A stretch of 64,000 bases of DNA from a virus (Duplodnaviria; Heunggongvirae; Uroviricota; Caudoviricetes): IMG/VR virus record IMGVR_UViG_3300048938_000061; one strand, given 5' to 3'. A program made the position numbers and the translations under genes. The notes under the pieces were generated by a model that searched no databases, was not told the DNA's origin, and worked only from the letters and a program-made list of their open reading frames with translations. Shown piece by piece: positions 38,075-61,931 of the stretch (within the stretch, counting starts at the first letter, position 1; each line of letters starts with the position of its first letter).

Positions 38075-38075
38075 T

Positions 38076-41000
38076 ATGCTAAATGACTCAACAGCTCGTC
38101 GTGTTGCCCTTCTCGAAATCAACCGCACTCTTATGGTTGAAGCTGGTGCTGGTTCGGGAAAAACATCACTCATGGCAGGGCGCATTATTTCAATGCTCGC
38201 CAATGGAATTCATCCTCGCGATATTGCAGCCGTATCATTTACGGAAATGGCGGCAGCTGAACTCATGGCCCGCGTCAGTGATACAATAGACGATGTATTA
38301 AAAGGAACGCCACCAGCCGACCTCCGTGCCTCTTACGAAGGCGGCAACGTCTCATCAGAAGGGCAAGCGAAGCTTCAGGAGGCCCAACATCACCTTGGTG
38401 AAATGACCTGCACCACTATTCACGGTTTCTGTAAGCGTCTCCTGAAGCCCTATCCGGTCGAGGCCGATATTGATCCTGGTGCCGCAATCCTAGATGCGAC
38501 GCAGGCATCTCTCCTTTTTGAGGACGTATTCAACGAATGGATTCGTGAGCGACTGAACAGCGAAGATTATCATAAAGATATCATTACCGAGATGGTCGCC
38601 GCCCATTCAGATACAAAGGAAGCTATCGAAACCATCCGTCGTCTCGCTGAACAGTTACGTGGTTCACCAGACCTATTCCTACATAAACAGGAATTCGATA
38701 TTTCTCCTGTGACTAAATTAATTAGCCAAATCGAAAGCTACGAAAAATGGATCGCGGGTCTTGGTTTTGAAGCCGAGGGCAATGAAGATATCCGCGCCGA
38801 TTTTGCTAAATTGCTAAATGATTTGAAGGCAACAAAAACCGTGAAAACGCATCAAGCGGTCATGGACATCATTCGTATGAAGCTTTCCAGTTCGGTTCTC
38901 AAAGCCGATGGCGGATTTCGCGTCTACAAGATGAAGGGAAAATGGCAGGTTGCTGCTCCTTCAAAAAAGGTCGGTGAAGATTGCAATACAGAGGCGACTG
39001 AACGCTATAATGAAATAGCAGAAGGTTACACCGCCATTAAAACAATGGCCGCGTCGGCAGCGCTTACGATCCTTGAAAGAGAAATTCGCCCAATGCTTAA
39101 TCGCTATCGCGAAAGAAAGCGGCAGGGCGCTGCTCTTGATTTTGAAGATTTGCTCGTCGCAACCCGCAAGCTTCTGCAAAATTATCCTGAGATCGCAAGT
39201 GCTCTCGGACAGCGGTATAAACATGTCCTCGTTGACGAATTCCAGGACACTGACCCTGTCCAGACAGAGATTTTCAAGCATCTTTGTTTCGACCGTGACA
39301 GCGACGGCGACTGGCTTCCACGTGATGGCGCGATCTTCCTTGTCGGTGATCCAAAACAGGGGATTTATCGTTTCCGTGGCGCTGACGTGAAGACATATCT
39401 GGATATGCGTAATCTTCTCGAAAAACATGACCCGACATCTATCTTGAAAATCTCTACAAATTTTCGGTCGAGCAAAGGCATTCTGGATTATGTCAATAAC
39501 GTATTCGATGTTCCTTTAAGCACACCTACACAGCCAGGATTTACCGCACTCGACCCTTTCCGTCAGGACACGACAAAACATCCTTCGGTTTCGACAATAA
39601 AGATTGGTGAATGGCCTAACATTGCCGAGACACGTGATGAGGAAGCGCGTCAAATTGCAGAAATGGCGCGTAAATTAATTAACACATTCCCTGTTTTTGA
39701 TAAGAGAATTGGGGCCACACGTCCGTGCAAACCATCCGACATTGCATTGCTCGCTCCAACAGGTTCTGATCTGTGGCGCTATGAGCACGCACTGGAAGAA
39801 GAAGGAATTTCAGTTGCTACTCAGGCGGGCAAGGGAATGTTTCAGCGGCAGGAAGTTCAAGACATGATCGCGATCACCCGCGTTCTTGCTGATCCTCGCG
39901 ACCATCTCGCTTTAGGTGCACTATTGCGTGGCCCTCTAGTCGGCATGTCGGAAAACGATCTTCTTGATGCTGCCTACAATCTTCCGAAACGCGAAGATGA
40001 AAGTCTTGCTCATTTACACATTGGTGTCGACACGGACCATATCAAAAATCCCGTTCTGAAGTCTGTTTTGAAACAACTCAACACGTTGCGTAACAACGGC
40101 AAATACACGACGCCTTATGACGTTCTTTCGAGCGCTGTAGACATGTTGAACATCAGAGCGACCGTTAAAGCTCGCCATGTGAAGTCACCTCATCGTGCGT
40201 TGGCCAATATAGACAGATACCTTGAAATGAGCCGTCCTTACACAACACGAGGATTAAGAGCCTTCTCTGATGAGGTCCGTTCCCTATGGGAAGAAGCTGA
40301 GCGTATTGCGGAAGCACATCCTGACGGAGAAGATCAGTCGGTCTCCATCATTACGATGCACTCATCTAAGGGGCTGGAATGGCCTGTGGTTTTCGTTATT
40401 AACACAATGACAGAAATTATGCGTTCGAGACCGCTGGTTGTTGATGTTAGTTCACGTCAAATATCGATGCCTTTCTTCGGAAGTCAGCCAACAGGATATA
40501 GCGAATTAAAACAGATTTCGGATGACGAATCTCACAATGAACGCGTGCGCTTACTTTACGTAGCAACGACGCGTGCCCGCGATCTTCTCGTTGTTCCTGT
40601 TCATGAAAAAGTAACGGAAAGGCAGTGGGCAACTGTAACTGACTTGAAGTTACAGGATATCCAGACAATGGATCTGGAAACTTTTTCCAGCAAGATGCGC
40701 ATACAGCGCGATGTCACCCTCAATAATCAGGATGAGAAGACTTTTTCTGAACAAACTAACTCAATTCTGTCTGCCAAGAAGCTCGTCGTAAATAAAACCC
40801 CTTCTCGCCACGAAAGCCACGCATCGAGCCTTCGGATTACTATCGATGATCTCATCGAAGCTGAACCAGTCAGCGACCCATCCGAATTCGTTCAAGGCAG
40901 CGCAGAACGCGGTATTGTGATGCATAAGCTGATGGAAGAAATCCTGACAGGAGAGTTGTCCGAGAACGAGGAAGATATTGAAAAGCGTGCGCGCGAGTTA

Positions 41001-41378
41001 ATCCAACAGATGATTGCTTCAAAAGAAGATGAGATCAAAGACATGGATGAACACATCATGACAAAGGAGATCATACAAACCCTCTCCTTGCCCCAAATCG
41101 TCATGATGCGTGATCGGCTTGTGCCAGAAGTTGCAACCTATTCCTCATTCGAAAACGACAAGTTTGAAGGCGTTACATTCGGCATTATGGATGCGGCCGA
41201 AATATCGGATAATGGAACCGTTGAAACCGTTATTGATTGGAAATCGGACAGAAGTCCCGCAGACGCAACAATTGAATTGTACCGCAAGCAAATTTCGGAC
41301 TATATGGCCATGAACGGGGTCAACCGGGGATTGATCGTTTTTATGGCAAGCGGAAAAGTTATAGAAGTAGCCGCATGA
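38076..41378 (+). CDS. addA: AddA-type ATP-dependent helicase/nuclease (UvrD/Rep superfamily 1)
   Basis: 'AGAGSGKTSLM' (Walker A), 'VLVDEFQDTDPVQ', 'MHSSKGLEWPVVFV', C-terminal 'IDWKSD' nuclease region. The start is placed at the ATG two nt after the addB stop; the ORF track over-extends to 37899. Confidence 0.85.
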   Translation: MLNDSTARRVALLEINRTLMVEAGAGSGKTSLMAGRIISMLANGIHPRDIAAVSFTEMAAAELMARVSDTIDDVLKGTPPADLRASYEGGNVSSEGQAKLQEAQHHLGEMTCTTIHGFCKRLLKPYPVEADIDPGAAILDATQASLLFEDVFNEWIRERLNSEDYHKDIITEMVAAHSDTKEAIETIRRLAEQLRGSPDLFLHKQEFDISPVTKLISQIESYEKWIAGLGFEAEGNEDIRADFAKLLNDLKATKTVKTHQAVMDIIRMKLSSSVLKADGGFRVYKMKGKWQVAAPSKKVGEDCNTEATERYNEIAEGYTAIKTMAASAALTILEREIRPMLNRYRERKRQGAALDFEDLLVATRKLLQNYPEIASALGQRYKHVLVDEFQDTDPVQTEIFKHLCFDRDSDGDWLPRDGAIFLVGDPKQGIYRFRGADVKTYLDMRNLLEKHDPTSILKISTNFRSSKGILDYVNNVFDVPLSTPTQPGFTALDPFRQDTTKHPSVSTIKIGEWPNIAETRDEEARQIAEMARKLINTFPVFDKRIGATRPCKPSDIALLAPTGSDLWRYEHALEEEGISVATQAGKGMFQRQEVQDMIAITRVLADPRDHLALGALLRGPLVGMSENDLLDAAYNLPKREDESLAHLHIGVDTDHIKNPVLKSVLKQLNTLRNNGKYTTPYDVLSSAVDMLNIRATVKARHVKSPHRALANIDRYLEMSRPYTTRGLRAFSDEVRSLWEEAERIAEAHPDGEDQSVSIITMHSSKGLEWPVVFVINTMTEIMRSRPLVVDVSSRQISMPFFGSQPTGYSELKQISDDESHNERVRLLYVATTRARDLLVVPVHEKVTERQWATVTDLKLQDIQTMDLETFSSKMRIQRDVTLNNQDEKTFSEQTNSILSAKKLVVNKTPSRHESHASSLRITIDDLIEAEPVSDPSEFVQGSAERGIVMHKLMEEILTGELSENEEDIEKRARELIQQMIASKEDEIKDMDEHIMTKEIIQTLSLPQIVMMRDRLVPEVATYSSFENDKFEGVTFGIMDAAEISDNGTVETVIDWKSDRSPADATIELYRKQISDYMAMNGVNRGLIVFMASGKVIEVAA

Positions 41379-43938: not shown

Positions 43939-44901
43939 TCAAAGACATCTATAAATTGGAGTATTCACTGCATCAAGTTTATTTACCCATGTCAGATGCT
44001 CATCGAAAAGCTGGTCTTCACCACGCCACGTATATGCTGCCAGCACACCGTCCTTCGCTATCGAGAAATCGAGGCAAGCCATCTTCGGCGAGAGCAAATA
44101 GGGCGTTCCGCTCATCCAATAGTGACCGAAGAACGTCAGCTTGTTCGATGCCGCAATCTTCAGATGATCTGGGAGTGAAAGCTCAGGCAGGTTCTCTAAA
44201 CCTTCTTCCGGCATGACAGCACTGCGATAATCAGTGGCGTCATCCTTCCACCATTGCAAGCGTGATTTTGTTCTAACGACACCACCCTTGTCGGTAAAAG
44301 AAAAACCGTCAGGAAGTTCGATCTCCAACCCCTTGGTGACAACCTCAATTGGATCATAAAGGGCATGCCCCTTTTCGAAACTTGCTAGAAGATCGTCACG
44401 ATTCATTGACCCATCATCGTTCATATGAGCTTTTAACGCGTTAAGAGAACTCGGATGCCAACATGCATGAGCCGCTCTGAAATCATCCGTTTCAAAAGCG
44501 ACAGCCAACGTCGAAAAGAATTCAACCAACTCTTTATGGAGATTTGAATCTTCACCAACAGCTTCGATGAAGGCTTTATGTTGATGACGGTTTTTGGGCC
44601 CACGTAGTCGTAAATGTCGGCCGGACTTACTGTCGGGAACTGGTGTTGCATAACCGATTGCGTTGAGTTCGTGATTGCCCATCAAAACATGAGCTGCGCC
44701 AGCATCACGCATTCTCCGAGGGATGTCTATGGAACGAAGTTGGTCAGGACCGCGATCAATCAGATCACCCAGAAAGATAGCCATCCTGTTGGGATTTGAA
44801 TGGCGATAGGTCCCGGCCCTGTTTACGTAACCAAGCTTTTCCAGAAGAGATTCAAGTGCATCAGCGTGACCGTGAATATCTCCAATAAAATCGTATTCCA
44901 T
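43939..44901 (-). CDS. PPP-family metallophosphatase (ApaH/PrpA-like)
   Basis: 'GDIHGH' (GDxHG), 'LGDLIDRGP' (GDxxDRG), 'GNHE'. Confidence 0.85.
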   Translation of the reverse strand: MEYDFIGDIHGHADALESLLEKLGYVNRAGTYRHSNPNRMAIFLGDLIDRGPDQLRSIDIPRRMRDAGAAHVLMGNHELNAIGYATPVPDSKSGRHLRLRGPKNRHQHKAFIEAVGEDSNLHKELVEFFSTLAVAFETDDFRAAHACWHPSSLNALKAHMNDDGSMNRDDLLASFEKGHALYDPIEVVTKGLEIELPDGFSFTDKGGVVRTKSRLQWWKDDATDYRSAVMPEEGLENLPELSLPDHLKIAASNKLTFFGHYWMSGTPYLLSPKMACLDFSIAKDGVLAAYTWRGEDQLFDEHLTWVNKLDAVNTPIYRCL

Positions 44902-45151
44902 AAGACCTGCTACTGAAATTTAGATAAATCAATTAGACAGCAATCTCTCGTAAACAGCAACTCTCAACTGTCAGAATTTCTCATATCATCCAATTCTTTT
45001 TCTATTCCAGAAAGCTCTTTACTTAATTCCGCCAGTTTAATGCCTTCAGGATCGATTGATGGATATGACTTAATCGTCTCAATGTCTTGAAAAACTTCGG
45101 TTTGTCTATCGACTAGATAATCGAATCTGGTGTACGCCATCACAGGAATCC

Positions 45152-45616
45152 TTACCGAGGACGAATGCCAATCAAAGCCGTAGCTTCTTCCCGGTCAATA
45201 AAAATCGAATGATTGATCGTCGTCTCCCCACCGAATTTGAAGTAATGACTTTCGAATCTATATCCTTCTACACCATCACAACGGCATTCATATCCCTGAT
45301 CTTTCATAGAATTCATGAACAATTCTGCTTCATCTGTGGTTGTAGAAACCTGGATCATCAGTTTCATATCCTCACCTGGAGACGGCTCTGGACGGACACG
45401 AATAATTGCTCCAGCTTCCTCAAGTCCAAGTAGGACTTCATAGCTCTCCAGCGGAGTGGGTCCGCTTTTCTGCATAAATCGTTCAATATTGAATTCCGGC
45501 CGTAAGGGATCATTGTCCCCTTTTTTCGCCGTGTAATTCGGAAAACCAGACCTTGCCATGTTCTGAATGAATCGTAGTCCTTGATCACGACTAACCTTGA
45601 TTTCGATAAAATCCAT
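45152..45616 (-). CDS. hypothetical protein (about 154 aa)
   Basis: ORF downstream of serS. Start chosen at the internal Met, to avoid a 29-nt overlap with serS. Confidence 0.45.
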   Translation of the reverse strand: MDFIEIKVSRDQGLRFIQNMARSGFPNYTAKKGDNDPLRPEFNIERFMQKSGPTPLESYEVLLGLEEAGAIIRVRPEPSPGEDMKLMIQVSTTTDEAELFMNSMKDQGYECRCDGVEGYRFESHYFKFGGETTINHSIFIDREEATALIGIRPR

Positions 45617-45683
45617 CTTCTGCCCCTTGTTCACTGATACGGGAGACGTCCCAGTGACACCTCCCTCGAATTCAAAACCCAAA

Positions 45684-46976
45684 TTAATTAGGCTGGATAG
45701 TCTCAAGCCCACCCATATACGAACGTAACGAGGTCGGAACCGTGATGGTGCCGTCTTCGTTCTGATAATTCTCCATGATCGCGATCAGGAGACGCCCGAC
45801 AGCGACCCCGGAACCATTGAGCGTATGAACGAATTGTGTACCCTTCTGGCCCCTTACCTTGTGACGGGCATTCATGCGACGGGCCTGGAAGTCACCGCAA
45901 TACGAGCAGCTTGAAATCTCACGGTAGGTCTTCTGGCCTGGTACCCAGACTTCGATGTCGTAGGTTTTGCGAGCGCTAAAGCCCATATCGCCGCCGCAGA
46001 GTAGCATTACGCGGTACGGAAGCTCGAAAGCCTGCAGGATAGCCTCAGCAGCGCCTAGCATGCGCTCCAGTTCCACTTCGCCGTCCTCTTCCTTCACAAT
46101 CGATACCAGCTCGACCTTATTGAACTGATGCTGCCGTAGAATACCTCGGACGTCACGGCCAGCCGATCCTGCTTCCGAACGGAAACATGGCGTAAGCGCA
46201 GTAAACCGTAGCGGCAAGCTTTCCGTCTCCACGATCTGATCGGAAACCAGATTGGTAAGCGAGACCTCAGCTGTTGGGATCAGGTAACGGCCATCCGTCG
46301 TTTTAAAGAGATCTTCTTCAAATTTGGGAAGCTGTCCTGTGCCGAACATTGCGGTTTCGCGAACCAGCAGAGGCACCTGACATTCCTCGTAACCGTGCTT
46401 GCTTGCCATATCTAGCATAAACTGACCAAGCGCACGTTCCAGCTTAGCAATACCTCCACGAAGAACAACAAAGCGGGAACCCGAGATGCGACCAGCGCTC
46501 TCGAAATCTAGACCGCCAAGTTCTTCACCAAGCTCAAAATGCTGTTTTGGCAAAAAACCCATTTCAGGGATCAATCCAACCGTCCGTACAAGAACATTGT
46601 CTTTCTCATCAACGCCAGCAGGTACACTATCGAGTGGCAAGTTAGGGAAAGTGGCAAGTCGATCAATCAGAGCGTCACCAACCGCTTTCGCTTTAACTTC
46701 CAGCGAGGAGATGGCTTCCTTCAAGGTTGCCACATCTTGCTTAAGAGCATCGCCGGAAGCCTTGTCACCTGCTTTATAAAAGGCTCCAATTTTCGATGAA
46801 AGAACCTTTACCTCATGATTTTTGGTTTCAATTTCCGAATTCGATTCATTGACGATATCACGGGAATCGCGAACAAATCCAAAAATGAACAGCGCCTCAT
46901 CACGCGTATAACCACGCTTCTCAAGGCCTGCAATAAATGCTTCCTCATTATCAATAATTGTTTTTGCGTTATGCAT
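45684..46976 (-). CDS. serS: seryl-tRNA synthetase
   Basis: N-terminal coiled-coil arm. Motif 2 'FRSEAGSAGRDVRGILRQHQF'. Motif 3 'GSGVAVGRLLIAIMENYQ'. 430 aa. Confidence 0.95.
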   Translation of the reverse strand: MHNAKTIIDNEEAFIAGLEKRGYTRDEALFIFGFVRDSRDIVNESNSEIETKNHEVKVLSSKIGAFYKAGDKASGDALKQDVATLKEAISSLEVKAKAVGDALIDRLATFPNLPLDSVPAGVDEKDNVLVRTVGLIPEMGFLPKQHFELGEELGGLDFESAGRISGSRFVVLRGGIAKLERALGQFMLDMASKHGYEECQVPLLVRETAMFGTGQLPKFEEDLFKTTDGRYLIPTAEVSLTNLVSDQIVETESLPLRFTALTPCFRSEAGSAGRDVRGILRQHQFNKVELVSIVKEEDGEVELERMLGAAEAILQAFELPYRVMLLCGGDMGFSARKTYDIEVWVPGQKTYREISSCSYCGDFQARRMNARHKVRGQKGTQFVHTLNGSGVAVGRLLIAIMENYQNEDGTITVPTSLRSYMGGLETIQPN

Positions 46977-47022
46977 TGTCTTATTCCGTTTTCGATTTCC
47001 TAAGTTCGCGTCAAATGGATAA

Positions 47023-47565
47023 TTAAATAGACACGTCTCTCGTCTTTTTAAGAGATTTGGAAATCATAGATCGAAGCTGGTCACGATAAAGACCATCGTC
47101 TTTTTTCTTTGGCTTGAAATAGCCCCAGTTGTCAAGAAATCCGAGAAATTGCTGATGCTGCTCATGCGACAGCTTTAGAATTTCCCCCATAAAGCTATGC
47201 ATGACAACAACACGAGGGTCGCCCTCTGGAGAAACAGTGATTGTCATCGATGAGCTAGTGTTTTCATCAATTGTATCAACAAGTGAACCGACAAACTCCG
47301 GACGATCATGGTTCTTTGCAAACCAAGGAAGTAATTCGCCGCAATCGATAATCGGAACATATTGAACAGCGCCATCACTTTCATCAACACGCGTGATAAT
47401 GCCTTGGCTTACTAGAATATCCAGCGCAATTTGTGCGCGCTTGGAAGGACGCACGGCCTTCATGCCAAATCGAAGTGTGCCTTTATTGGGCTCAAGCATA
47501 CCAAACCAAGCCGCACAAATTGCCTTAACTTCATCAGTTAGATTTTCAAACTTTTCAATGCTCAT
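47023..47565 (-). CDS. hypothetical protein (180 aa), last gene of the candidate operon
   Basis: Long ORF 95 nt downstream of the previous gene. No motif recognised. Confidence 0.55.
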   Translation of the reverse strand: MSIEKFENLTDEVKAICAAWFGMLEPNKGTLRFGMKAVRPSKRAQIALDILVSQGIITRVDESDGAVQYVPIIDCGELLPWFAKNHDRPEFVGSLVDTIDENTSSSMTITVSPEGDPRVVVMHSFMGEILKLSHEQHQQFLGFLDNWGYFKPKKKDDGLYRDQLRSMISKSLKKTRDVSI

Positions 47566-47660
47566 ATCTAAAATCCTCTTCGCGGGGATTTAAACACCAT
47601 TGCGCTTAAAACATCAACTGAAAATGTCATTATTTATTCGGAATTATTAAGTACGCATTT

Positions 47661-48203
47661 TTAATTATGGTAATTCGTATTTTCCTCAGCGGATAAAGTC
47701 TGGTATTTGGGGATAATTATGCCAAGGGAGACAACAGAGCCACTTAAAAAACCACCGAGTTCGACATTAATTCCATTATCGCCACGATAAATAGCAGCAG
47801 CCAATCGATGATGGCCATCAAATAAACTAATTGGCAAATAATCACTGCCATTCAATTCAATTCCAATTGGCTCATCGAAACCATAATGCACAAGGAATGC
47901 AATCCGGGCTTCATGTTTGGCAGCGCCCCATGATCTTTCATGAATGGCAAATTGTGCTGAATATGGTTCGGCTTCGAAACGCAAGGCTTCAATGGCAACC
48001 TTCACTCCATTCATCGTCACGCCTTTGCCATCGTGCCAAGGTGAGTTTTCAAATGGGTTAAACTCAGCTAGACGATCAAGAGGAAGGCTACCAATCAGCC
48101 TATCTTCACTATCAGGATGAAATTCAATGAGATTTTCAACACCGCCCCAACGTTCGGCATCTTCTAACGGAATAGTTTCGACCAAATTTTCATCCATCAC
48201 CAA
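47661..48203 (-). CDS. ParB/sulfiredoxin-fold-like protein (180 aa) - tentative
   Basis: 'SLFDGHHRLAAAIYRG' resembles the ParB/Srx DGxHR nucleotide-binding/nuclease motif. Overlaps the upstream micro-ORF by 7 nt. Confidence 0.5.
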   Translation of the reverse strand: MVMDENLVETIPLEDAERWGGVENLIEFHPDSEDRLIGSLPLDRLAEFNPFENSPWHDGKGVTMNGVKVAIEALRFEAEPYSAQFAIHERSWGAAKHEARIAFLVHYGFDEPIGIELNGSDYLPISLFDGHHRLAAAIYRGDNGINVELGGFLSGSVVSLGIIIPKYQTLSAEENTNYHN

Positions 48204-48403
48204 GCCTCAATAATAGCGAACGGGTTTACCGTAGCCCAAACAAGACCATCATACTCGACCAGATGGTGTTCTCCAAACTGATCCAGAACATTAAAGACGC
48301 CTGGTTCCGCATAAGGTTGCGTTTCGCCGACGAACTGGACCTTGCGCCCAAGATCGTCATCCATAACCGACATTTCGATGTCGTCACCAAGCTTGGGCTT
48401 CAT
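48197..48403 (-). CDS. micro-protein (68 aa), translationally coupled
   Basis: Internal Met 'MKPKLGDD...' preceded by 'GGAAGGAAAAGCAA'. The ORF-track 124-aa version would overlap the upstream gene by 188 nt. Confidence 0.45.
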   Translation of the reverse strand: MKPKLGDDIEMSVMDDDLGRKVQFVGETQPYAEPGVFNVLDQFGEHHLVEYDGLVWATVNPFAIIEAW

Positions 48404-49406
48404 TTGCTTTTCCTTCCAAGATTCCCGCATCAAGTAGCCCCTTCTCGGTGACGACATAACCGACACCACCGCGCTCGATCCAATCGGCGGCAAGCAATTC
48501 ATTGATCTCACCGTTACTAATGTCGAACGCACCGCATCTCGCACGAGGATTGGATCGCTTACTGTAAGCATTCAGGCCACCCGCAGAATGAGCATATGCA
48601 AGCAGCTTTTTGCGTTTAGGGGTCATCTTGATCGTAGCGACATACGCGTCACGAATAGCCTTCTTCTTGGCTTCTTCAGCCTGGTTCAAGGCAGTTGAAA
48701 TTCTCTCCGAGATCGCAATCACATCGGGGATGGTGGCGATATCGCTCACTTTGACATCGAATTCATCCGTCTCAAGCCCGTTCTCTTGCAAGATCGAGTG
48801 AACGAGAGCTTTATGCTGAGGATGAAATTGAAAGAGATGGCCGCAGGAAGTTTCGACCGAATACGGGCCAGTTGGCTCTTTAAAAGAGACCTGCATCAAG
48901 TCGCCTTGAGAGTTTTTGACACGCAGGAATCCACGACCAAATTCAAATCCAGTGGGTCGCCCTTCAAAACGTGATCCGCCTGCGGCGACAAATGCGTCGA
49001 AGATTGGCTGTGCGGCAATGGATTCAGCATCATGATCCCGCGCACGTTCTGCAGTGACTTGATCCAGATGGCGAGCGATAGCCGCCGAGTCATGCTTACC
49101 GTACGTATGGCCAACGAATTTCAAACAGTCGTTGACTGAATTTCCTTCGCAGCGAGGTTCATCGAGGCGACCGATGATAACAATTCTGTTCGCCTCAGTG
49201 GTGCCGACATTCCAGTCGTAAACAACACTGTTCCCAAGACCTGCATAGTCGAGACCTTGCACAAAAGATTCAGCTGTCCTGCTATCTGTGAACGAATGAA
49301 TTTCAACCAGAAACGACGGAAGCTGATCAACCGATGTCAGCGGCTCACCGTCTAGCGCGGAGATGCCTGTATTGTTACCCGGATTAGCGAACAGCTCGGC
49401 CATCAC
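48384..49406 (-). CDS. hypothetical protein (340 aa)
   Basis: Long ORF. Its start overlaps the stop of the upstream gene (49403..49406). Confidence 0.6.
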   Translation of the reverse strand: MMAELFANPGNNTGISALDGEPLTSVDQLPSFLVEIHSFTDSRTAESFVQGLDYAGLGNSVVYDWNVGTTEANRIVIIGRLDEPRCEGNSVNDCLKFVGHTYGKHDSAAIARHLDQVTAERARDHDAESIAAQPIFDAFVAAGGSRFEGRPTGFEFGRGFLRVKNSQGDLMQVSFKEPTGPYSVETSCGHLFQFHPQHKALVHSILQENGLETDEFDVKVSDIATIPDVIAISERISTALNQAEEAKKKAIRDAYVATIKMTPKRKKLLAYAHSAGGLNAYSKRSNPRARCGAFDISNGEINELLAADWIERGGVGYVVTEKGLLDAGILEGKANEAQAW

Positions 49407-49804
49407 TCCACGCCTCCTGGCTTGTCAGGATCTTCGGGATGACGTTCATAGCGAATATGATATTTTGCCAAAGACAGTTTTTCTGTTCCAATTATACGAA
49501 CGATTTCACCATAAGTTAATTCATACTCGGCAACGGCCACATTAAAAATATTCCCGACACCCTTAACAGCGCTCATCAATGGATCGCTTGCAAGAGGATG
49601 ATCAGACCATTTCAAAGTAGCTTCCCGCTCTGACATGTCATGGCGTCCAGCATCAATCCAAAAACGTTCTATCTCATTCCAGATATAATAAATATCCATA
49701 TATGAAAATTCGCCAACACTAGAAATATAATTTTCAACCGCACATAGAATTTGGGTTTCGGCTTTTTTAGCTTCTAATTCTCGCTTATGAATTTTCATTC
49801 TCAC
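49403..49804 (-). CDS. hypothetical protein (133 aa)
   Basis: ORF 14 nt downstream of the phosphatase gene. Confidence 0.5.
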   Translation of the reverse strand: MRMKIHKRELEAKKAETQILCAVENYISSVGEFSYMDIYYIWNEIERFWIDAGRHDMSEREATLKWSDHPLASDPLMSAVKGVGNIFNVAVAEYELTYGEIVRIIGTEKLSLAKYHIRYERHPEDPDKPGGVE

Positions 49805-49818
49805 AACTCCAATATTCT

Positions 49819-50604
49819 TTATGCAGCGATTTCTACGTATTCATTCATATTATTATCGAACACAGTGCCAAGACCGCGATCAAGCAGGACAGGTTCGACG
49901 TCGACAACAGACTTGAAACTGCCATCCGTCTGGAAAAAACGGAACGAGCCGTTATCGATAGCTACTGCCGTTAGGCGACCGCTATGATAAGCACCCGTAT
50001 CAATCGAAATGCGATTTTCCGTGACGACTGGAAGGTCGCCAACGACAGTGTGTCCGTGAACAATAATGTTCTGAAGACGCCCAACATGATCCAGAAACGG
50101 GTCCCTGATCCACATCAGGTTCTTTTCCGTCTGATCTGTTAGGGAAACCATTGGATCGATGCCAGCGTGGGCGAAAACGATACCGTCAACAGTTACCATT
50201 GGCTTGGCGTTCGCAAACATGCGCAGATGATCTCCATGCATGGTACGCACAAACTCCACTGCCTCATTTAGGTCGCCTGGATAATATGAAGCCAATGTTT
50301 CCATACCACCGCGAGACATCCAAGCCGCTGCATATCTGCGATCCTGTTCAAATACAGCTTTCAGAAAAAGGTCATCATGATTGCCCTTAAGAACAATTGA
50401 ACCTTCATAATCGATGAGAGCTTCTGCAACGGCATCCATGGCCTGACGGGATTGAGGCCCCTTATCGCAGATATCACCTAAAAAAATAAAAATGGGAGTG
50501 GCGTCATGAATTGCAGCATCTGCAACAGCATGCGCCATGATCGCGTTTAGAAGATCAGCGCGACCATGGACATCACCAATTGCATAAGTGATTTTCTTTG
50601 ACAT
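49819..50604 (-). CDS. PPP-family metallophosphatase (second copy)
   Basis: 'GDVHGR', 'LGDICDKGP', 'GNHDD'. Start at 'MSKKITYA', preceded by 'aaaggggcgagaa'. Confidence 0.85.
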   Translation of the reverse strand: MSKKITYAIGDVHGRADLLNAIMAHAVADAAIHDATPIFIFLGDICDKGPQSRQAMDAVAEALIDYEGSIVLKGNHDDLFLKAVFEQDRRYAAAWMSRGGMETLASYYPGDLNEAVEFVRTMHGDHLRMFANAKPMVTVDGIVFAHAGIDPMVSLTDQTEKNLMWIRDPFLDHVGRLQNIIVHGHTVVGDLPVVTENRISIDTGAYHSGRLTAVAIDNGSFRFFQTDGSFKSVVDVEPVLLDRGLGTVFDNNMNEYVEIAA

Positions 50605-50727
50605 TTCTCGCCCCTTTGGATGCGAGATTAATATCATTATTTAAATGGATGTCAACAAAATAGATTAATTTAAAGACAGAAATTCTTATAATTAATTATA
50701 TAATTACTGATGTAACTCCTATTATCC

Positions 50728-51285
50728 CTAGCCACTCTTTTTCATATTTTCAAGGTCTATTTCTTCCATCATTTTTGTTAGCATTTTTGCATCAACGTTG
50801 CTTTTGTCGACCTTCGATTCTAGAGCTTCGATATCCTTTTTCAGGACATTAATTCGGTCGTTGTAAAATTCGGCACTTGAAAGCGCGTTTTTCGCAGCCT
50901 TTTCGATAGCTTCACGTTTATTCGTGTAGTGCGAATCGTCATACTGAAGAATACCGGAATGCGTGGTGTTAGGAAATCCGAGTTTCTCTGCCTTATCTTC
51001 GACGATCTGGCTGCCGTCCCATGTGTAGACAGTGGTCGATTCCGTGAATTCGTCAGCGCTATTCAGAAGATTAACGAACAGGTTGGAATCGGAATTGATT
51101 TCATCCTGATACCGCATAAGCTCGCCTTTCCGATCCCAAAGATCATCGTATGGCTTGATAATCACACCTTCGGCAGATATGCCAATCAAATCATGAACCA
51201 TGGGCGACCCGATATAAACAATGTCACCAACTTTATGTACGATATGGCCAATATTGTAATGTTTCTTGATGGCTTTAACGCCCAT
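50728..51285 (-). CDS. hypothetical protein, member of tandem paralogue pair (185 aa)
   Basis: Shares 'IGSP' and 'LGFPNTTHSGIL' blocks with 51314..51835. Confidence 0.6.
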   Translation of the reverse strand: MGVKAIKKHYNIGHIVHKVGDIVYIGSPMVHDLIGISAEGVIIKPYDDLWDRKGELMRYQDEINSDSNLFVNLLNSADEFTESTTVYTWDGSQIVEDKAEKLGFPNTTHSGILQYDDSHYTNKREAIEKAAKNALSSAEFYNDRINVLKKDIEALESKVDKSNVDAKMLTKMMEEIDLENMKKSG

Positions 51286-51313
51286 GTTTTTCTCCTGTGT
51301 TTACATAATAAGA

Positions 51314-51835
51314 TTAGTTCATTGCCTTCAACGTCTCGACCTGTTTAGCATATCGATCACGCGCATCAGTCTCTTTGACAAGTTCCTTGGTAAGTTCATC
51401 AATCCGTCTAACTGACCACTTGAAAGCAGATTCCGAATTTTCCAGTGCCCATTCAATGACTTTAGAACGATCTGTAGAAAAACGATTTTCGTACATCAAC
51501 AGGCCTTCATGAGTAGCGTTTGGATAGCCAAGGTTCTCACAAAAATGCTCTGTTATCTCAGCTTCATTATAAGAAAAAACACGAATTGATCGCTCGAAGA
51601 CGTCTTTCATATTTATTAATTCGCGTAATTTCACTGGATCACTGACTAGTTCTTCATAAATGCGATCAAGTTCACCACCTAAGCGAGAAAAAACTCTGTT
51701 GATTTCCTGAATCACGCCTTCATTATCGAAAACAATAATATTCGGAATATATGGTGACCCAATTCTGAACAATCCATTCTGAACATCTATGTTGTGCTCA
51801 ATACCATAGTACTCTTTAATCGATTTCCACCCCAT
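51314..51835 (-). CDS. hypothetical protein, member of tandem paralogue pair (about 173 aa)
   Basis: 'LGYPNATHEGLL' and 'FRIGSPYIPNII' blocks parallel the neighbouring gene. Confidence 0.6.
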   Translation of the reverse strand: MGWKSIKEYYGIEHNIDVQNGLFRIGSPYIPNIIVFDNEGVIQEINRVFSRLGGELDRIYEELVSDPVKLRELINMKDVFERSIRVFSYNEAEITEHFCENLGYPNATHEGLLMYENRFSTDRSKVIEWALENSESAFKWSVRRIDELTKELVKETDARDRYAKQVETLKAMN

Positions 51836-51918
51836 GATTTGCTCCATATATTTTCACTAATAATGATTTAAATAAGACCGCTTTGCTTATTGGAATCTTC
51901 GTTTTTTTGTTGCTTTAA

Positions 51919-53930: not shown

Positions 53931-54602
53931 ATGGAGAAAATCATGTCTAGCGAAAAAGATTGGAACAAAATTGATTTTATCAATTGGATGAACCGCAATG
54001 GTCTCACCCATGATGATGTTGCTTGTGTATTCAATCAGCACCCGCTGACGAATGATCTTACTGCATCCAATGTTCGCGATATTCTCGACGGCACGGCTCC
54101 TCTATGGGAAGAGTACGAAGCAAGCGCACGACGCTTTGAAGCTGAACGACTTGTATCAGATGACGTCGACATGACCGCAGCGATTGCTGAACTATCCGAT
54201 AAATGTCAGACGGTTCCGCAGGGCGTTATTACTGGCATTACCGCAGGCTCGCTGCGGGGTTGGACATCTGCGAACACAATCGTTTACTTCGTTGCTACCA
54301 AGTCGGAGAACGTCGCCAAGGATTACCCTTCGAATATCATTCCAATCGCTTGTGACAACATCATGGATCGTGTTGAAGTCCGCCAGGACAGCGATGGTAA
54401 TTGGTATCGTCTTGCTGATCCTGTGCGTATGGTCATCGATGCTATTCGTTACGATGTTGAACAAGATCGTTTTTCGGTAGAAGAACTCTTCCGAGAAGCC
54501 ATTGCAGAAGGCGTAAGACGAGATGAACTATGTGAGTTTGCGAAGCGTCAAGGCGATGTAGCAGTTACAAAACTCAATTACTACTTCACACTTCTCGACT
54601 GA
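53931..54602 (+). CDS. hypothetical protein (223 aa); candidate partner of the AbiEii-like gene
   Basis: ORF 68 nt upstream of the nucleotidyltransferase-like gene. Confidence 0.5.
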   Translation: MEKIMSSEKDWNKIDFINWMNRNGLTHDDVACVFNQHPLTNDLTASNVRDILDGTAPLWEEYEASARRFEAERLVSDDVDMTAAIAELSDKCQTVPQGVITGITAGSLRGWTSANTIVYFVATKSENVAKDYPSNIIPIACDNIMDRVEVRQDSDGNWYRLADPVRMVIDAIRYDVEQDRFSVEELFREAIAEGVRRDELCEFAKRQGDVAVTKLNYYFTLLD

Positions 54603-54670: not shown

Positions 54671-55534
54671 ATGCAAACAGGCGACCAAATCGCAGAATCC
54701 ATTAGACAACGCGCCAAGAATACAGGGATCGATCCACTCGAATCCATGCGCAGATTTGTCATGGAGCGCTTTATTGTTCGCTTAAACCTCGCAGACAAGA
54801 CGGACAAAGTCGTTCTGAAAGGCGGAATGGCATGGTGGCTTCAGCCAGAGCTGGTTGAACACGCTCGATCAACGTTCGATATAGACATACACTTACATGT
54901 TCCAGAAAAACACGAAGACGTTGTAGCCCTGTTTAAAAAGGCACAGTCTATCGACTGCGAAGACGGGTGTCGCTTCGAGTTCAAGAAAATTCGCAAACTG
55001 GAACATTCCGGTGATCATGAAGGCTTACGCGTCATGGTTCGCGCTTTTATTGGAACGAAATTCGTGGACTTCCACAGCGACATTGGATTTGGAGGCACAA
55101 AGCCCTCTACTTTAAAAACTGTCAATTTCAAATCAATGCATCCTCGCGTATCAGGAGGAAGCATAATGATTACTCCTCCAGAATTTGTAGTTTCCGAAAA
55201 AATTTCAGCGATAATTAAGAACGGAACAAGCAACACTCGTATCAAAGATTATAACGATCTTTTTGTTCTTTCTAATATTCACATAGACGCAGCGGATTTG
55301 GTCTACGCCATTAATACAACATTTTCAGATCGTAAACAGGAACTTCCCTACTCAATTGACGAAATCGCTGGGCTGTCTCAACAATATGCTGATGCCAATC
55401 AAGCAGCTTGGGAAAAATGGCTTATCCAGTCCAACAGGACAGCAAGAATGCCTGGTGATTTCTCTCAAGTCGTAAATAGAGTAGGGTCTTTTACAGAAGA
55501 AATAATGGCTTATAAAAACACTTGGCGTCCATAG
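54671..55534 (+). CDS. AbiEii/DUF1814-like nucleotidyltransferase (type IV TA / abortive-infection toxin family) - tentative
   Basis: 'VVLKGGMAWWLQ...RSTFDIDIHL' resembles the conserved LKGGTAL...RxSxDID signature of AbiEii. About 287 aa. Confidence 0.5.
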   Translation: MQTGDQIAESIRQRAKNTGIDPLESMRRFVMERFIVRLNLADKTDKVVLKGGMAWWLQPELVEHARSTFDIDIHLHVPEKHEDVVALFKKAQSIDCEDGCRFEFKKIRKLEHSGDHEGLRVMVRAFIGTKFVDFHSDIGFGGTKPSTLKTVNFKSMHPRVSGGSIMITPPEFVVSEKISAIIKNGTSNTRIKDYNDLFVLSNIHIDAADLVYAINTTFSDRKQELPYSIDEIAGLSQQYADANQAAWEKWLIQSNRTARMPGDFSQVVNRVGSFTEEIMAYKNTWRP

Positions 55535-55539
55535 CCCAT

Positions 55540-56226
55540 TTAACTCCACCAGTAAGCAATTACAGGGCGAAGTTTATTAATCCCAGCGTCATCCATAATT
55601 CCGAGCTTTTTTAAATACCATCGGATCTCACTAGGGATTTGCGGCACAACCTTTACGGTTTCCGCCCACCGTTTTTCCTGTTCTGAAATAGGAAACCTGT
55701 AATCATCCATGCGTACAGGCTTTCCGTCTGGCTCCATGATAAAGTAACTCCAAAGTCCAAAACCGTCATTAAGATAACTAATCCGATCCTTGGATTGCCA
55801 GATGCTCCCATTATTTTCCGGACGATGAGCCTCGATCATCTGATCAAGATAATCCGACCGCCTGCACCATTCTTTTCTATACGAGAGGTTTGGGAAGAAA
55901 ATAACATCGCGCGGGTCGTCGTCATTCGGGCCGAATACGAGCTGATAAAGGTCTTCCGCTGGACCAATGTCCGCTGGGCGACGATTTCCTTCTGTGTAAG
56001 TCCTGGATAGGAGCTGCAATTCTCCAATCGACGGAATAGGGTCTTTGCTATAAAAAATTTTTTTGTAGAAATCCAACTCAACGGTCAGGAATTCAGAAGT
56101 AGCGTTGTCGAAAATATCCCTGAAGACATCTAATGTATCATGCGCTTCGCAATCGAGAATTACCTCGTTTTCGAAATCATGCCACGGCATGCCATATCCT
56201 ATTGCATTGTGAAAAGCATTACTCAT
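55540..56226 (-). CDS. hypothetical protein (228 aa)
   Basis: Long ORF. No motif. Confidence 0.55.
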   Translation of the reverse strand: MSNAFHNAIGYGMPWHDFENEVILDCEAHDTLDVFRDIFDNATSEFLTVELDFYKKIFYSKDPIPSIGELQLLSRTYTEGNRRPADIGPAEDLYQLVFGPNDDDPRDVIFFPNLSYRKEWCRRSDYLDQMIEAHRPENNGSIWQSKDRISYLNDGFGLWSYFIMEPDGKPVRMDDYRFPISEQEKRWAETVKVVPQIPSEIRWYLKKLGIMDDAGINKLRPVIAYWWS

Positions 56227-56618: not shown

Positions 56619-56897
56619 ATGGCCGTGTACGTCGACAAGACCAGAACACCATACCGCAACATGATCATGTGCCACATGTTGGCTGATACACCTCATGAAT
56701 TGCATGATATGGCATTGAAGATCGGTATGAAACTGTCTTGGTTCCAACCATTGTCGTCACCGCATTATGATGTCTGTCTTATGCGCAGAAAACGTGCAAT
56801 TAATCTAGGGGCAGTAGAGATCGACCGAAGGAAGACAGTCGAACTCATTCGAAAAATAAGAGAAAACTCCGATATTGATTGGCGTCCGCATACTTAA
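56619..56897 (+). CDS. DUF4031-like small protein (92 aa) - from recollection of the family pattern
   Basis: 'MAVYVDKTRTPYRNMIMCHMLADTPHELHDMALKIGMKLSWFQ...HYDV' matches my memory of the DUF4031 N-terminal pattern (MAVYVDD...W.HL.ADT..ELH.FA..IGL...WFQ...HYDV). Confidence 0.5.
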   Translation: MAVYVDKTRTPYRNMIMCHMLADTPHELHDMALKIGMKLSWFQPLSSPHYDVCLMRRKRAINLGAVEIDRRKTVELIRKIRENSDIDWRPHT

Positions 56898-56925
56898 AGG
56901 GCGAACAAACAAAACCCGGATTTGC

Positions 56926-57966
56926 TCACATCGATGGCGCAGATGACAGCGCGGTTTCGTTCGCGACCAACATGTCGAGATCCGCGAGCATCTGCGGGTA
57001 ATAGTCCCTGCCCGCTATTTCAATGCCGACGTTATCACGTTGCAAATTCTCAATTGCATCCATTATGCTATCTTTCGCAGCAATAAGCCTCCCAAAGTCT
57101 CTTGCGGGCATACGCGCCATATTAATCGCAGCGTGATTAAGTGTTTCACTTTTAAATGTCTCAGGAATGCCGGGTACATATATAGGACGTCCCTGTAAAA
57201 GTGCATATCTCACCGCGTGCATTGAACCACTTTCCATATCCCCTTGCATAAAGAATGTTGCAGCGGAAACGCCAGTCTGAATGCGGTTCCTGCGTATTAG
57301 TGAAGACGGGTCATGTTCTTTACCCAACGACTGCTCGGTTATCACGACGCCACCGCTTTGAACTATGCGCTCTACAAGGGAAAACGCGGAGTCAGATGAA
57401 TACACATCAATGCCAGAGCCAATGATCGCGGCTGTAGGTGATTTAACGTCGAGAGCAATGTTATGAGCAATGGAATCTACACCACGCGCAAGACCTGAAA
57501 CGATAGTCCAGCCGTCCTCTGCTAAAGTAGCGGTAACTCGCCGAGAGACGGCCGCACCGAACTCCGTAGGACTGCGTGTACCTATACAGGCCACAGAACG
57601 ATCCAGTAGGTTCATATCACCACTGGTGTAAATCACGAGAGGTGCGTCGGGTGATGATGCAAGGCGCTTAGGATAACCGTCGTCATATATGCTGAATATG
57701 ACTGCGCCCATTTCACGGGCATCAAATAATTCGCCTTCCGCGTTGTCTATTGCCTGAAGAACGGCATCCCGTCCTTCTAAAAGAATTCGTCGAACGGGTG
57801 CTGTGGCTACACCCTTCAGGATTTCTTCAGTCGAATTAACAACGTCACCCAAGGTTTCGAATTTATCGAGAATTTTGTTCATCGTTGTCGGGCCAAGGCC
57901 TTTAATACCCAGTAGCGTCTTAATGCCCAACGCAGATTTAAGCTGTATGTCATCCATACCCAACAT
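56926..57966 (-). CDS. dprA: DNA processing protein DprA/Smf
   Basis: 'ACIGTRSPTEFGAAVSRRVT...IVSGLARGVDSIAHNIALD...TAAIIGSGIDVYSSDSAF' Rossmann-like DprA core. Confidence 0.85.
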   Translation of the reverse strand: MLGMDDIQLKSALGIKTLLGIKGLGPTTMNKILDKFETLGDVVNSTEEILKGVATAPVRRILLEGRDAVLQAIDNAEGELFDAREMGAVIFSIYDDGYPKRLASSPDAPLVIYTSGDMNLLDRSVACIGTRSPTEFGAAVSRRVTATLAEDGWTIVSGLARGVDSIAHNIALDVKSPTAAIIGSGIDVYSSDSAFSLVERIVQSGGVVITEQSLGKEHDPSSLIRRNRIQTGVSAATFFMQGDMESGSMHAVRYALLQGRPIYVPGIPETFKSETLNHAAINMARMPARDFGRLIAAKDSIMDAIENLQRDNVGIEIAGRDYYPQMLADLDMLVANETALSSAPSM

Positions 57967-58548: not shown

Positions 58549-59379
58549 GTGTATTTTGCCCGCAAAAGGAACCGACAAATGACTGCACCAATTGCAAATA
58601 TGGAAAAGTACAACAAGGAAATGGTGAAATCGCTGGTCGACAAGATCGCTTTCATCGACAAGGTTGACGCCGAAGTTTTTGTCGATTTTGGCTGCGCAGA
58701 CGGCACCCTTCTTGGCTTCATCAAGAAGCTTTTCCCACAATACACTTTGATCGGTTACGACAACGATTCAGAAATGATCGAACGGGCGAAGACAAATCCT
58801 GAGAATGAAGGAATTGTCTTTACGACGGACTGGGCTGAGATCGAAGCCATCGTTAGTTCAGAGAAAAAACGCGGGCATCATGCCTGTGTTGTCCTGTCGT
58901 CCGTTATACATGAACTCCGCAGCTATCTTTCGGAACAGGAGATGGCTGACGTATGGAGCAAAATCTGGAGCGCTGGAACAAAGGAGAAGTTGTTCAGCTA
59001 TGTCGCTATCCGAGATATGATGGTCAGCCGGACTACCAGCCGCGCTGCAGACCCGATGCAGGTTGCCCGTATTCGCCAGCTATTCGACAAAGACAAGCTA
59101 AACCAATGGGAAGCAATTTGGGGTTCTATCAACGAAAATTGGAGCCTGACGCATTTCCTGTTAACGTATCGCTACACCCATTCTTGGGAACGTGAGGCTC
59201 GGGAAAACTATCTCCCTGTGAACTACGAAGATTTTATGGCGAGCATTCCAATTGATTATTTTCCGATTTTCATGGAACACTACACGCTTCCATTCCTGAG
59301 ACGTTGTGTGCAAAAGGATTTTGGTTTTGATCTGTCGGATCGCACTCACTTGAAGCTGGTTCTCGAACTTCGCAAATAA
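58549..59379 (+). CDS. class I SAM-dependent methyltransferase (small-molecule/unknown substrate)
   Basis: Motif I 'VFVDFGCADGTLL', with an acidic residue after the beta-2 strand ('GYDNDSEMI'). Confidence 0.7.
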   Translation: MYFARKRNRQMTAPIANMEKYNKEMVKSLVDKIAFIDKVDAEVFVDFGCADGTLLGFIKKLFPQYTLIGYDNDSEMIERAKTNPENEGIVFTTDWAEIEAIVSSEKKRGHHACVVLSSVIHELRSYLSEQEMADVWSKIWSAGTKEKLFSYVAIRDMMVSRTTSRAADPMQVARIRQLFDKDKLNQWEAIWGSINENWSLTHFLLTYRYTHSWEREARENYLPVNYEDFMASIPIDYFPIFMEHYTLPFLRRCVQKDFGFDLSDRTHLKLVLELRK

Positions 59380-61307: not shown

Positions 61308-61931
61308 ATGGGTTGGGTTTTTGGAGCTAAACCAAACAATATTGGTGAATGGTTGCACAAGATTTATAGTCGGGAAACGAACGACACGAAACAGATCTGT
61401 CTTGACTACGCTATGGTCAACATGTCTGAGATTTATATCGCTGTTGAACAAACCGACAAGTATGGGATCAAAACCATAACCGCCGAAATCATGAGCATTA
61501 AGTTTGCAAACGAACGGGAAGACGGCTTCGTCTATCCACAAATGGGTTACAACGTATATGGAGAACAATGCGGAGTTCACCAGACCAGCTGTCCCAAGCG
61601 AATTTTGGATGTCCTAACACCCACTGACGACATAACATCGAATGAGTGGCGTGATAAGTGTCGCAAAAGACTGGAACACAGAGCCTCCGTATCCAAACTT
61701 CAAGACGGTGACTACATACAATTCTCCGAGAAGATACAATTCAATAACGGAGAGCAACGCGACACGTTTAAAATTAAAAGCTTCAACAAAAAGAAAATTC
61801 TTGTAGCCGTTTCTAACGATACAGGTGAAACACTTTTTCGTGCCCAAATAAAAAACTGGCGAGATATCGCCTTCAAGAAACTTGAAGAAGACGATCTCCC
61901 TTGGAAAGCAGTCAACAGGATGCGACCATGA
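61308..61931 (+). CDS. hypothetical protein (207 aa)
   Basis: Long ORF. Its stop overlaps the next gene start (ATGA at 61928..61931). Confidence 0.55.
   Translation: MGWVFGAKPNNIGEWLHKIYSRETNDTKQICLDYAMVNMSEIYIAVEQTDKYGIKTITAEIMSIKFANEREDGFVYPQMGYNVYGEQCGVHQTSCPKRILDVLTPTDDITSNEWRDKCRKRLEHRASVSKLQDGDYIQFSEKIQFNNGEQRDTFKIKSFNKKKILVAVSNDTGETLFRAQIKNWRDIAFKKLEEDDLPWKAVNRMRP

Follow-up and report, generated by a model that had tools for sequence, protein, structure and literature searches.

A six-gene string in a 64,000-nucleotide IMG/VR record, probably inherited as part of a megaplasmid backbone, contains a solo ParB/Srx-fold family

The window analyzed here, a 64,000-nucleotide stretch of the IMG/VR virus record IMGVR_UViG_3300048938_000061, carries on its minus strand, between positions 47,023 and 50,604, six consecutive genes that a sequence-only reading had singled out as a tightly chained operon and as a candidate for an undescribed module, for example a phosphatase-controlled nuclease or abortive-infection system. 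In their order on the strand, the genes encode a PPP-family metallophosphatase (PPase), a small protein (p133), a larger protein (p340), a micro-protein (p68), a protein with the motif DGHHR, and a last small protein (p180). From comparison with related loci, we consider it probable that this block is a lineage-specific string of co-directional, partly coupled accessory genes in a megaplasmid backbone and not a self-contained six-gene system; this degree of confidence applies to the overall reading only, and our confidence in each biochemical role discussed below is much lower. Tight gene packing and two recognizable motifs do not make a system, and here it is the comparative context that tells inherited megaplasmid synteny from functional linkage. 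What the block does hold is modest in novelty, namely a family that lacks a model of its own in the well-known ParB/Srx superfamily, together with an uncharacterized megaplasmid protein family, neither of which alters the current understanding of defense or plasmid biology.

All six genes are kept in five relatives of the window (L002, L003, L008, L009, and L035; the loci used for comparison carry L numbers), and the full six-gene order was found only there. Because the flanking AbiEii, seryl-tRNA synthetase (SerRS), second PPP phosphatase (PPase2), and AddAB genes are syntenic in the same contigs, we read the shared order as inheritance within one lineage rather than as independent recurrence. 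Hidden Markov models (HMMs) of the block proteins were then run against every six-frame open reading frame (ORF) 6 to 10 kb on either side of the DGHHR gene at ~25 independent loci (L001, L004, L005, L007, L011-L027, and L038-L040), and no homologue of PPase, p133, p340, p68, or p180 was found within these distances. Similarly, at four p340 loci (L030, L032, L033, and L034, which include R. leguminosarum, Bosea, and AM1), no other block gene was present within 9 to 10 kb. On the R. leguminosarum plasmid CP140867.1, 120 kb separate p340 from the PPase orthologue (56% identity); the two genes are 38 kb apart on the AM1 megaplasmid, and on the Bosea plasmid pANAM02, SerRS and p340 are 264 kb apart. 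A distant homologue of p133 is encoded on pPL1, a 1.17-Mb plasmid of P. silesiensis, with no other block gene nearby.

We found no co-occurrence of the block genes beyond the synteny that a single lineage has inherited. The sequence-only reading had asked whether homologues of p340 and p133 always sit beside PPase and the DGHHR protein, and they do not, p340 standing alone at four loci and p133 on pPL1. It had also named dispersal of the individual genes in unrelated contexts as the outcome that would speak against its proposal, and this is the outcome that we obtained, since DGHHR, p340, and p133 homologues were found apart. A search of PADLOC-DB v2 returned only a match of the PPase domain to PDC-S10 (E=0.0046, 14 bits) and none for the other five proteins. 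Moreover, the block does not occupy a variable island; it sits in a conserved, syntenic backbone next to SerRS. With its genes dispersed, its PADLOC result limited to a trivial domain match, and its location in the backbone, the idea of a single six-gene defense or toxin-antitoxin module was not borne out.

More distant relatives point to what the block was built upon. The L031 locus, whose p340 is 32% identical to that of the window, has the order DprA-DUF4031-PPase-p340-p180 (N-domain)-SerRS-methyltransferase-PPase2-AddAB, with p133, p68, and the DGHHR gene absent, and L028, with a 33% identical p340, has PPase, a 220-aa gene homologous to window gene 55540-56226, p340, a 46-aa ORF, and a 486-aa ORF; p133 is absent from L028 as well. 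Down to 32 to 35% p340 identity, the relatives thus have in common an older order of backbone genes, DprA ... DUF4031 ... PPase, p340, (p180 N-domain), SerRS, PPase2 ... AddAB, to which the lineage of the window adds three further genes, p133 between PPase and p340, and p68 and DGHHR after p340, and each block gene has its own phyletic distribution. In L028 (8001-10698), the 486-aa ORF overlaps the 46-aa micro-ORF by 4 nt, a layout that parallels p340-p68-DGHHR, although the 486-aa product is unrelated to ParB/Srx.

The sequence of p133 itself sets it apart from its neighbors. It is only 31 to 53% identical to its positional orthologues in loci where the neighboring proteins are 61 to 94% identical; its pN (nonsynonymous differences per site) is 0.32 to 0.50 and its pS (the synonymous equivalent) is saturated even against L002, where neighboring genes have a pS of 0.34 to 0.45, which suggests allele replacement. 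The G+C content at third codon positions is lowest in the block for p133 (0.295) and DGHHR (0.32), compared with 0.39 to 0.52 for the neighbors, and this is consistent with a later arrival of both genes. The protein ends in a conserved HIR.ERHP.DPDKPGG motif and had no match in Pfam, PHROG, NCBIfam, PADLOC, or PDB. The junction between PPase and p133 also varies: it measures 14 to 63 nt in most relatives, holds an extra 90-aa ORF in L002 (8130-8402), and is a 288-nt gap in L036 (3435-3723). In the window, p133 and this junction together cover 49403-49818 (minus strand), and the junction is an insertion spot.

The six minus-strand ORFs were all read in the sequence where they had been noted. 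The PPase gene (49819..50604, 261 aa) has its start codon, ATG 50604, just after AAGGGG and ends at 49819. In the window, 14 nt separate it from GTG 49804, which would give p133 its 133 aa; the alternative ATG 49798, 8 nt after GGAG, is most plausibly the true start and yields 131 aa (49403..49798). The sequence GTGATG at the p133/p340 junction allows either a 4-nt overlap (GTG 49406) or a 1-nt overlap (ATG 49403), the latter placing p340 at 48384..49403. p340 and p68 (48197..48403, 68 aa) overlap by 20 nt, and the ribosome-binding site GGAAGGA that had been pointed out before the micro-ORF is indeed there, 7 nt upstream of ATG 48403; in the relatives this overlap is 4 nt, and a short C-terminal extension accounts for its greater length in the window. 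p68, thus coupled to p340 upstream, is coupled downstream to the DGHHR gene, either by a 7-nt overlap with TTG 48203 (180 aa) or, more likely, by a 1-nt overlap at TGATG with ATG 48197 and a GAGG ribosome-binding site (47661..48197, 178 aa). The DGHHR and p180 (47023..47565) genes are separated by a 95-nt gap (47566-47660), so p180 is not tightly coupled to the block; the sequence-only reading had listed four junctions for the six genes, and the fifth is this gap, which had gone unlisted.

Because all six ORFs are conserved in the five relatives and have dN/dS values (nonsynonymous to synonymous divergence) of 0.05 to 0.17 wherever dS is unsaturated, they are real genes. The limits of the block are arbitrary, as the same-strand array runs on from both sides, spanning 53814 to 43044 and taking in SerRS, which follows p180 after 46 nt on the same strand, and PPase2. 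Since the overlaps among p133, p340, p68, and DGHHR are kept down to 61% p340 identity, these four genes are very probably co-expressed in this lineage; the sequence-only reading had concluded on co-translation and probably a complex; the translational coupling of the four genes is conserved within the lineage, but it need not mean a complex. A 123-nt AT-rich gap upstream of the PPase gene contains TTGACA-17 nt-ATTAAT (50627..50655, minus strand), which was found by eye and is a suggestive promoter candidate only. Consensus scans gave counts of sigma-70 promoter-like and terminator-like sequences across the region no higher than in shuffled sequence; this candidate went unscored because the promoter scan accepts only hexamers with A as second and T as sixth letter.

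The family of the first gene product, as proposed from its motifs, is firm. PPase matches PF00149 at 45.9 bits against a gathering cutoff of 21.5 (E=1.2e-11) and phrog_246, "NinI-like serine-threonine phosphatase", at 5.5e-41, its translation carries the metal-binding motifs GDVHGR (GDVHG), GDICDKG, and GNHD, and its dN/dS is 0.05 to 0.11. Its best PDB sequence matches are Arabidopsis Rhizobiales-like phosphatase 2 (RLPH2; 5vjv, 1.4e-6) and the Pnkp phosphatase domain 4j6o. As in the bacterial-like PPP phosphatases (lambda PPase/NinI, PrpA/PrpB, ApaH/PrpE, RLPH2, and the Pnkp domain), PF00149 is found together with GDxHG, GDxxDxG, and GNH[DE]; unlike them, PPase has Lys in its second motif, GDICDKG, where the consensus GDxxDRG has Arg, and it reaches the curated cutoff of no NCBIfam equivalog, falling far short for the ApaH-type (50.7 versus 176), PrpE (40.6 versus 340), PrpA/B (39.5 versus 332), and Pnkp (37 versus 750) models. 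On these sequence matches, assignment to the PPP-family metallophosphoesterases of bacterial-like (lambda/NinI/RLPH) type is secure, and they do not discriminate among the substrate classes (protein, Np4N, or polynucleotide 3'-phosphate).

Downstream of the block, SerRS (45684..46976, minus strand; PF00587 and PF02403) is 92 to 94% identical in L002 and L003 and adjoins the p180 homologue in L031, and PPase2 (43939..44901, minus strand; 320 aa, PF00149 at 2.8e-10) has a 59% identical orthologue at the same relative position in L031; its NCBIfam matches to Pnkp, PrpE, and ApaH are all sub-threshold. SerRS thus lies between two different PPP phosphatases (43939-50604, minus strand), an order that recurs in L031 (4943-10784) at 32% p340 identity. 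Both phosphatases match the ApaH and PrpE (Np4N hydrolase) models below threshold, and a dinucleotide-polyphosphate link to SerRS is conceivable.

Of greatest interest among the products is the DGHHR protein. It contains FDGHHRLAAA, as had been noticed, and has a ParB/Srx domain at about residues 50 to 160 behind a lineage-specific N-terminal extension of ~50 aa. In an alignment of 28 members, the invariant positions are H95, R98, A100, and D127-G-x-H-R-L-A-A-A135; they form a Box I-like helix followed by strand-GxxR-helix, the strand at 121 to 124 and the helix at 128 to 138, with Box II/P-motif G128-H-H-R131, whose G and R are invariant in all 28. The protein has the alpha+beta arrangement of the ParB/Srx fold. 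The resemblance proposed by the sequence-only reading therefore stands at the level of fold and GxxR motif but not at that of a profile match, as no Pfam family was returned at E<=1 for any of the 28 members, including the ParB N-terminal model PF02195, and profile searches of PDB sequences gave noise or nothing. It is not a canonical ParB, having no helix-turn-helix (HTH), no C-terminal dimerization domain, and no adjacent parA (its neighbors are p68 and p180), nor is it a sulfiredoxin, since the motif is GHHR or GNHR in 28 of 28 members with no catalytic Cys (GCHR).

The closest known proteins are the solo ParB-CTPase-fold proteins (Kaljevic et al. 2025, PMC12704722), along with sulfiredoxin, PadC, Osa, and the DdrB-like ParB of Iyer et al. 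2017 (PMC5512222). Solo forms of ~100 aa exist in phages (PMC12704722). Like these, the DGHHR protein is a small alpha+beta protein with GxxR at a strand-helix junction preceded by a Box I-like helix (H.ARIA), is found on mobile elements, and lacks a ParA partner, HTH, and dimerization domains. It differs in having a family signature of its own, H..R.A ... DG[HN]HRLAAA, and, in the lineage of the window, the N-terminal extension. The DG[HN]HRLAAA proteins are a distinct solo ParB/Srx-fold family unmatched by any Pfam model; having no Pfam or PDB match, the family would have escaped a survey that took PF02195 and its gathering cutoff as the starting point.

The family is widespread on large replicons. 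It is rare in a 5.8-billion-protein set, with 11 matches, yet it occurs in 17 species-representative genomes (among them Burkholderiales, Thalassobaculaceae, and megaplasmids of Pseudomonas and Paracoccus), on 119 PLSDB plasmids, 113 of which are Pseudomonas megaplasmids of 110 to 970 kb, with Variovorax and Bosea plasmids besides, and on nine IMG/VR contigs, including the Caulobacter jumbo phages CcrPW and CcrColossus. Given this range of megaplasmids and jumbo phages, the family lends itself well to the nucleoside triphosphate (NTP)-binding screens under way for this fold. The gene (at 5992-6411 in L038, for example) is labeled hypothetical in every PLSDB record listed, and its Pseudomonas carriers include plasmids of clinical P. 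aeruginosa and P. putida isolates. Its neighbors vary: jumbo-phage-like contigs have DUF6927 beside it, and at other loci the neighbor is RecD2, an M15 peptidase, TnpB, an SMC-like ATPase, a strawberry-notch helicase, or a hypothetical gene; in Bosea sp. RAC05 (L039), the domain forms the N-terminal part of a 444-aa protein beside a strawberry-notch helicase gene. In the jumbo-phage-like L005 (7435-8396) and L007 (7393-8411), DUF6927 directly precedes and overlaps a short DGNHR gene, possibly a real two-gene association that is not kept in the window. The window has its own DUF6927 gene (61308-61931, plus strand), overlapping a downstream ORF (61901-62470) that probably accounts for the window's ART-PolyVal match; we considered this ORF as a DGHHR paralogue and found it unrelated.

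The p340 protein, which has a conserved N-terminal module and two putative further domains, belongs to an uncharacterized family of ~320 to 365 aa on Hyphomicrobiales megaplasmids. An exhaustive profile search of 1.84 billion representatives returned 42 remote homologues, ~25 of them full length at 22 to 35% identity, and no phage or IMG/VR relative was found. Only in the nearest sub-family does the gene adjoin that of the phosphatase. The closest named homologue, 88% identical, is on a 1.19-Mb contig labeled Mesorhizobium sp. SP-1A (GCA_032460275.1); a 100% identical JGI protein exists for the ATG-start form of 339 aa, on a 1.8-kb contig, and no exact match for the GTG-start form of 340 aa. 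A structure model suggests a middle domain resembling YbjN and type III secretion system (T3SS) chaperones and a C-terminal HTH/winged-helix region, both putative and to be taken as a lead, not a result. The middle-domain resemblance to YbjN/DUF2170/AmyR regulators and CesT-type T3SS chaperones comes from a low-confidence model and is without support from sequence searches, and p340 differs from them in being roughly threefold their length, with additional domains at both termini, and in having no secretion-system context. The conserved C-terminus, KMT..RRRFL ... GWI ... VT..G, gave only sub-threshold winged-helix/homeodomain-like matches and one JGI label, "Fur-like". We tested and discarded a relationship between the p340 C-terminus and the p180 N-terminus (hhalign probability 0.6%) as well as Rosetta-stone fusions of the N-module, since ten partial homologues had no informative Pfam domain; a 1755-aa partial homologue of the N-module looks like a repeat-protein artefact. 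The family is specific to poorly understood Hyphomicrobiales megaplasmids of 0.7 to 1.3 Mb and offers a marker and a first structural lead for them.

The two remaining proteins have narrower distributions. p68 is 68 to 84% identical in L002, L003, L009, and L035, with 40 invariant positions and a dN/dS of 0.05 to 0.17, and no homologue was found outside the window's own lineage. A p68-DGHHR two-gene unit was considered and rejected: in L004, the only independent locus with a long-form DGHHR protein, the 69-aa ORF before the DGHHR gene is not detectably related to p68 (21% identity, no HMM match, hhalign 0.07%). For p180, conserved in its N-terminal ~100 aa, the 5.8-billion-protein search returned only close homologues, the plasmids searched held none, and no family or PDB match was obtained; L031 encodes, between p340 and SerRS, a 140-aa homologue that is 55% identical over residues 1 to 99 (HMM 5.7e-39). 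Profile searches against solved structures with p340, p180, p133, and DGHHR gave noise only. The earlier description of the four products other than PPase and DGHHR as ORFans is wrong for p340, with its 42 remote homologues, and for p133, with its pPL1 homologue; nor does the term fit the DGHHR protein.

What the individual proteins might do can be proposed by analogy and from sequence likeness. The GxxR P-motif arginine is required for NTP binding in the ParB/Srx fold, and the nucleotide bound by such domains is not predictable from sequence (PMC12704722); for ParB/Srx domains on mobile elements, functions as NTP-regulated DNases or NTP sensors have been put forward (PMC5512222). By analogy, the DGHHR protein would bind an NTP through the Box II GxxR arginine R131 and could be a small NTP-dependent switch, possibly a nickase, in replicon DNA transactions or inter-element competition, in line with what has been suggested for the solo ParB/Srx domains that phages and plasmids encode (PMC5512222, PMC12704722); a nuclease function may be one possibility among several. 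p340, predicted to have a YbjN/chaperone-like middle domain and an HTH-like C-terminal region, would serve as a protein-binding adaptor or regulator, and PPase is predicted to remove phosphate from a protein or an Np4N-type nucleotide. The coupling of p133, p340, p68, and DGHHR would probably give co-expression in the lineage, with no complex implied.

Several observations weigh against reading the block as a string of accessory genes in a megaplasmid backbone. The p133-p340-p68-DGHHR coupling, with overlaps of 4, 4, and 1 nt, is kept down to 61% p340 identity (L009), which fits a functional unit; the proximity of PPase and p340, kept in three sub-lineages at about 55 to 59% PPase identity, could reflect function; the domains of p340 were called on a model whose mean pLDDT (predicted local distance difference test) is 54; and the plasmid status of the window, as against a chromid or chromosome, is assigned by homology to relatives only. 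The likeliest of the rival explanations is an old regulatory pair of PPase and p340 (with the p180 N-domain), such as a phospho-regulated DNA-binding adaptor reset by PPase, for which p133, p68, and DGHHR would be passengers. The two genes are adjacent or one gene apart in the window lineage, L028, and L031 (33 to 35% p340 and 55 to 59% PPase identity), the p180 N-domain follows p340 in L031, both orthologues are present on CP140867.1 and the AM1 megaplasmid, and p340 has predicted chaperone/YbjN-like and HTH-like features. However, the three sub-lineages with adjacency share the rest of the backbone order, so that inheritance accounts for the adjacency just as well; no phosphatase lies within 9 to 10 kb of p340 in four family members of greater divergence, the genes are 38 to 120 kb apart on two such plasmids, and the intervening gene varies (p133, a 220-aa protein, or none). 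We consider a pair of this kind unlikely. The coupling of the four genes could alternatively mark p133-p340-p68-DGHHR, possibly with PPase, as a plasmid-competition unit newly assembled, in this low-G+C megaplasmid lineage, from parts that are solitary elsewhere, in which p133, as a hypervariable specificity protein, and p340, as a chaperone-like DNA-binding adaptor, would direct the DGHHR NTP-switch or nickase against competing replicons or phages; we regard this as improbable.

The module of the original proposal, an undescribed conflict system (defense, abortive infection, or toxin-antitoxin) in which PPase controls a ParB/Srx nuclease effector through phosphorylation, would account for the tight overlaps, for the order kept in the lineage down to 61% p340 identity, for an AbiEii gene 4 kb away, and for the hypervariability of p133, which resembles that of many arms-race genes, and ParB/Srx domains can be NTP-regulated DNases (PMC5512222). 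It is nevertheless very unlikely, given a DGHHR family that lacks the other five genes at the ~25 loci examined, PPase and p340 unlinked on CP140867.1 and AM1, an L031 locus that keeps PPase-p340-p180-SerRS without p133, p68, and DGHHR, a syntenic backbone setting beside SerRS instead of a variable island, no PADLOC system match, and no kinase partner in the block. Class II aminoacyl-tRNA synthetases make Ap4A as a side reaction, and the PPP enzymes that flank SerRS could on this account be ApaH/PrpE-like Np4N hydrolases for Ap4A-type dinucleotides, with the DGHHR protein as an NTP/Np4N sensor; the best NCBIfam match of PPase is to the symmetrical bis(5'-nucleosyl)-tetraphosphatase model, both enzymes match the PrpE and ApaH models, and the order PPase ... 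SerRS ... PPase2 is kept in L031. The scores are, however, far below the cutoffs (50.7 versus 176 for ApaH and 40.6-51.5 versus 340 for PrpE), the PHROG label is that of a NinI-like Ser/Thr phosphatase, RLPH2, the nearest relative with a solved structure, is a protein phosphatase, SerRS and p340 are far apart on pANAM02, and DGHHR genes at other loci are not linked to synthetases, which leaves this nucleotide-alarmone explanation the least probable of those considered.

In PLSDB, a tblastn search with p340 matched three plasmids only: CP140867.1 of R. leguminosarum (1.32 Mb), pANAM02 of Bosea sp. ANAM02 (692 kb), and the 1.26-Mb megaplasmid of M. extorquens AM1. Because the p340 homologues sit on giant megaplasmids, we assign the window, on the strength of this homology, to a giant Hyphomicrobiales (Rhizobiales-type) megaplasmid, of which it would be a piece. 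These replicons of 0.7 to 1.3 Mb, with mostly hypothetical genes, share with the window homologues of p340, the PPP phosphatase, and, in Bosea, SerRS; they differ in gene order, with the block genes scattered, and in a G+C content of 63 to 70% versus 44.6% in the window. Across the megaplasmid family, G+C ranges from 44 to 70%, and the region of the SP-1A-labeled relative has 51.6%. Mesorhizobium has a G+C content above 60%, and either the host label of the SP-1A contig or the match between plasmid and host may be questionable.

A phage origin was considered and rejected: the region had no megablast match among 50,697 phage records, p340 has no phage or IMG/VR relative, and the window encodes an autotransporter, AddAB, RNase J, and DsbB. 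No tRNA gene was found in the window. Besides an autotransporter-S8 protease, an AAA protease, RNase J, AddAB, DprA, DsbB, LemA, and M48, it encodes Band 7, AbiEii, DUF4031, DUF6384, DUF6927, and ART-PolyVal proteins and many ORFs without a family. The cellular-type genes at 3714-6794 (minus strand), 22730-24283 (minus strand), 35363-41378 (plus strand), and 56619-57966 include the autotransporter with its S8 protease passenger, RNase J, the AddAB-type helicase-nuclease, DUF4031, and DprA. The DprA, DUF4031, and AddAB genes, together with a 276-aa gene (58549-59379), are 54 to 61% identical in L028 and L031 and outline the core backbone of the family. The gene for the AbiEii nucleotidyltransferase toxin (54671-55534, plus strand; PF08843), some 4 kb away from the block, and its 223-aa upstream partner (53931-54602) look like an AbiE-like toxin-antitoxin or abortive-infection pair, which is kept in L002, L003, and L008. 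Directly upstream of PPase, two tandem paralogues of 185 and 177 aa with 35 to 39% mutual identity (50728-51847, minus strand) are kept in L002 and L003.

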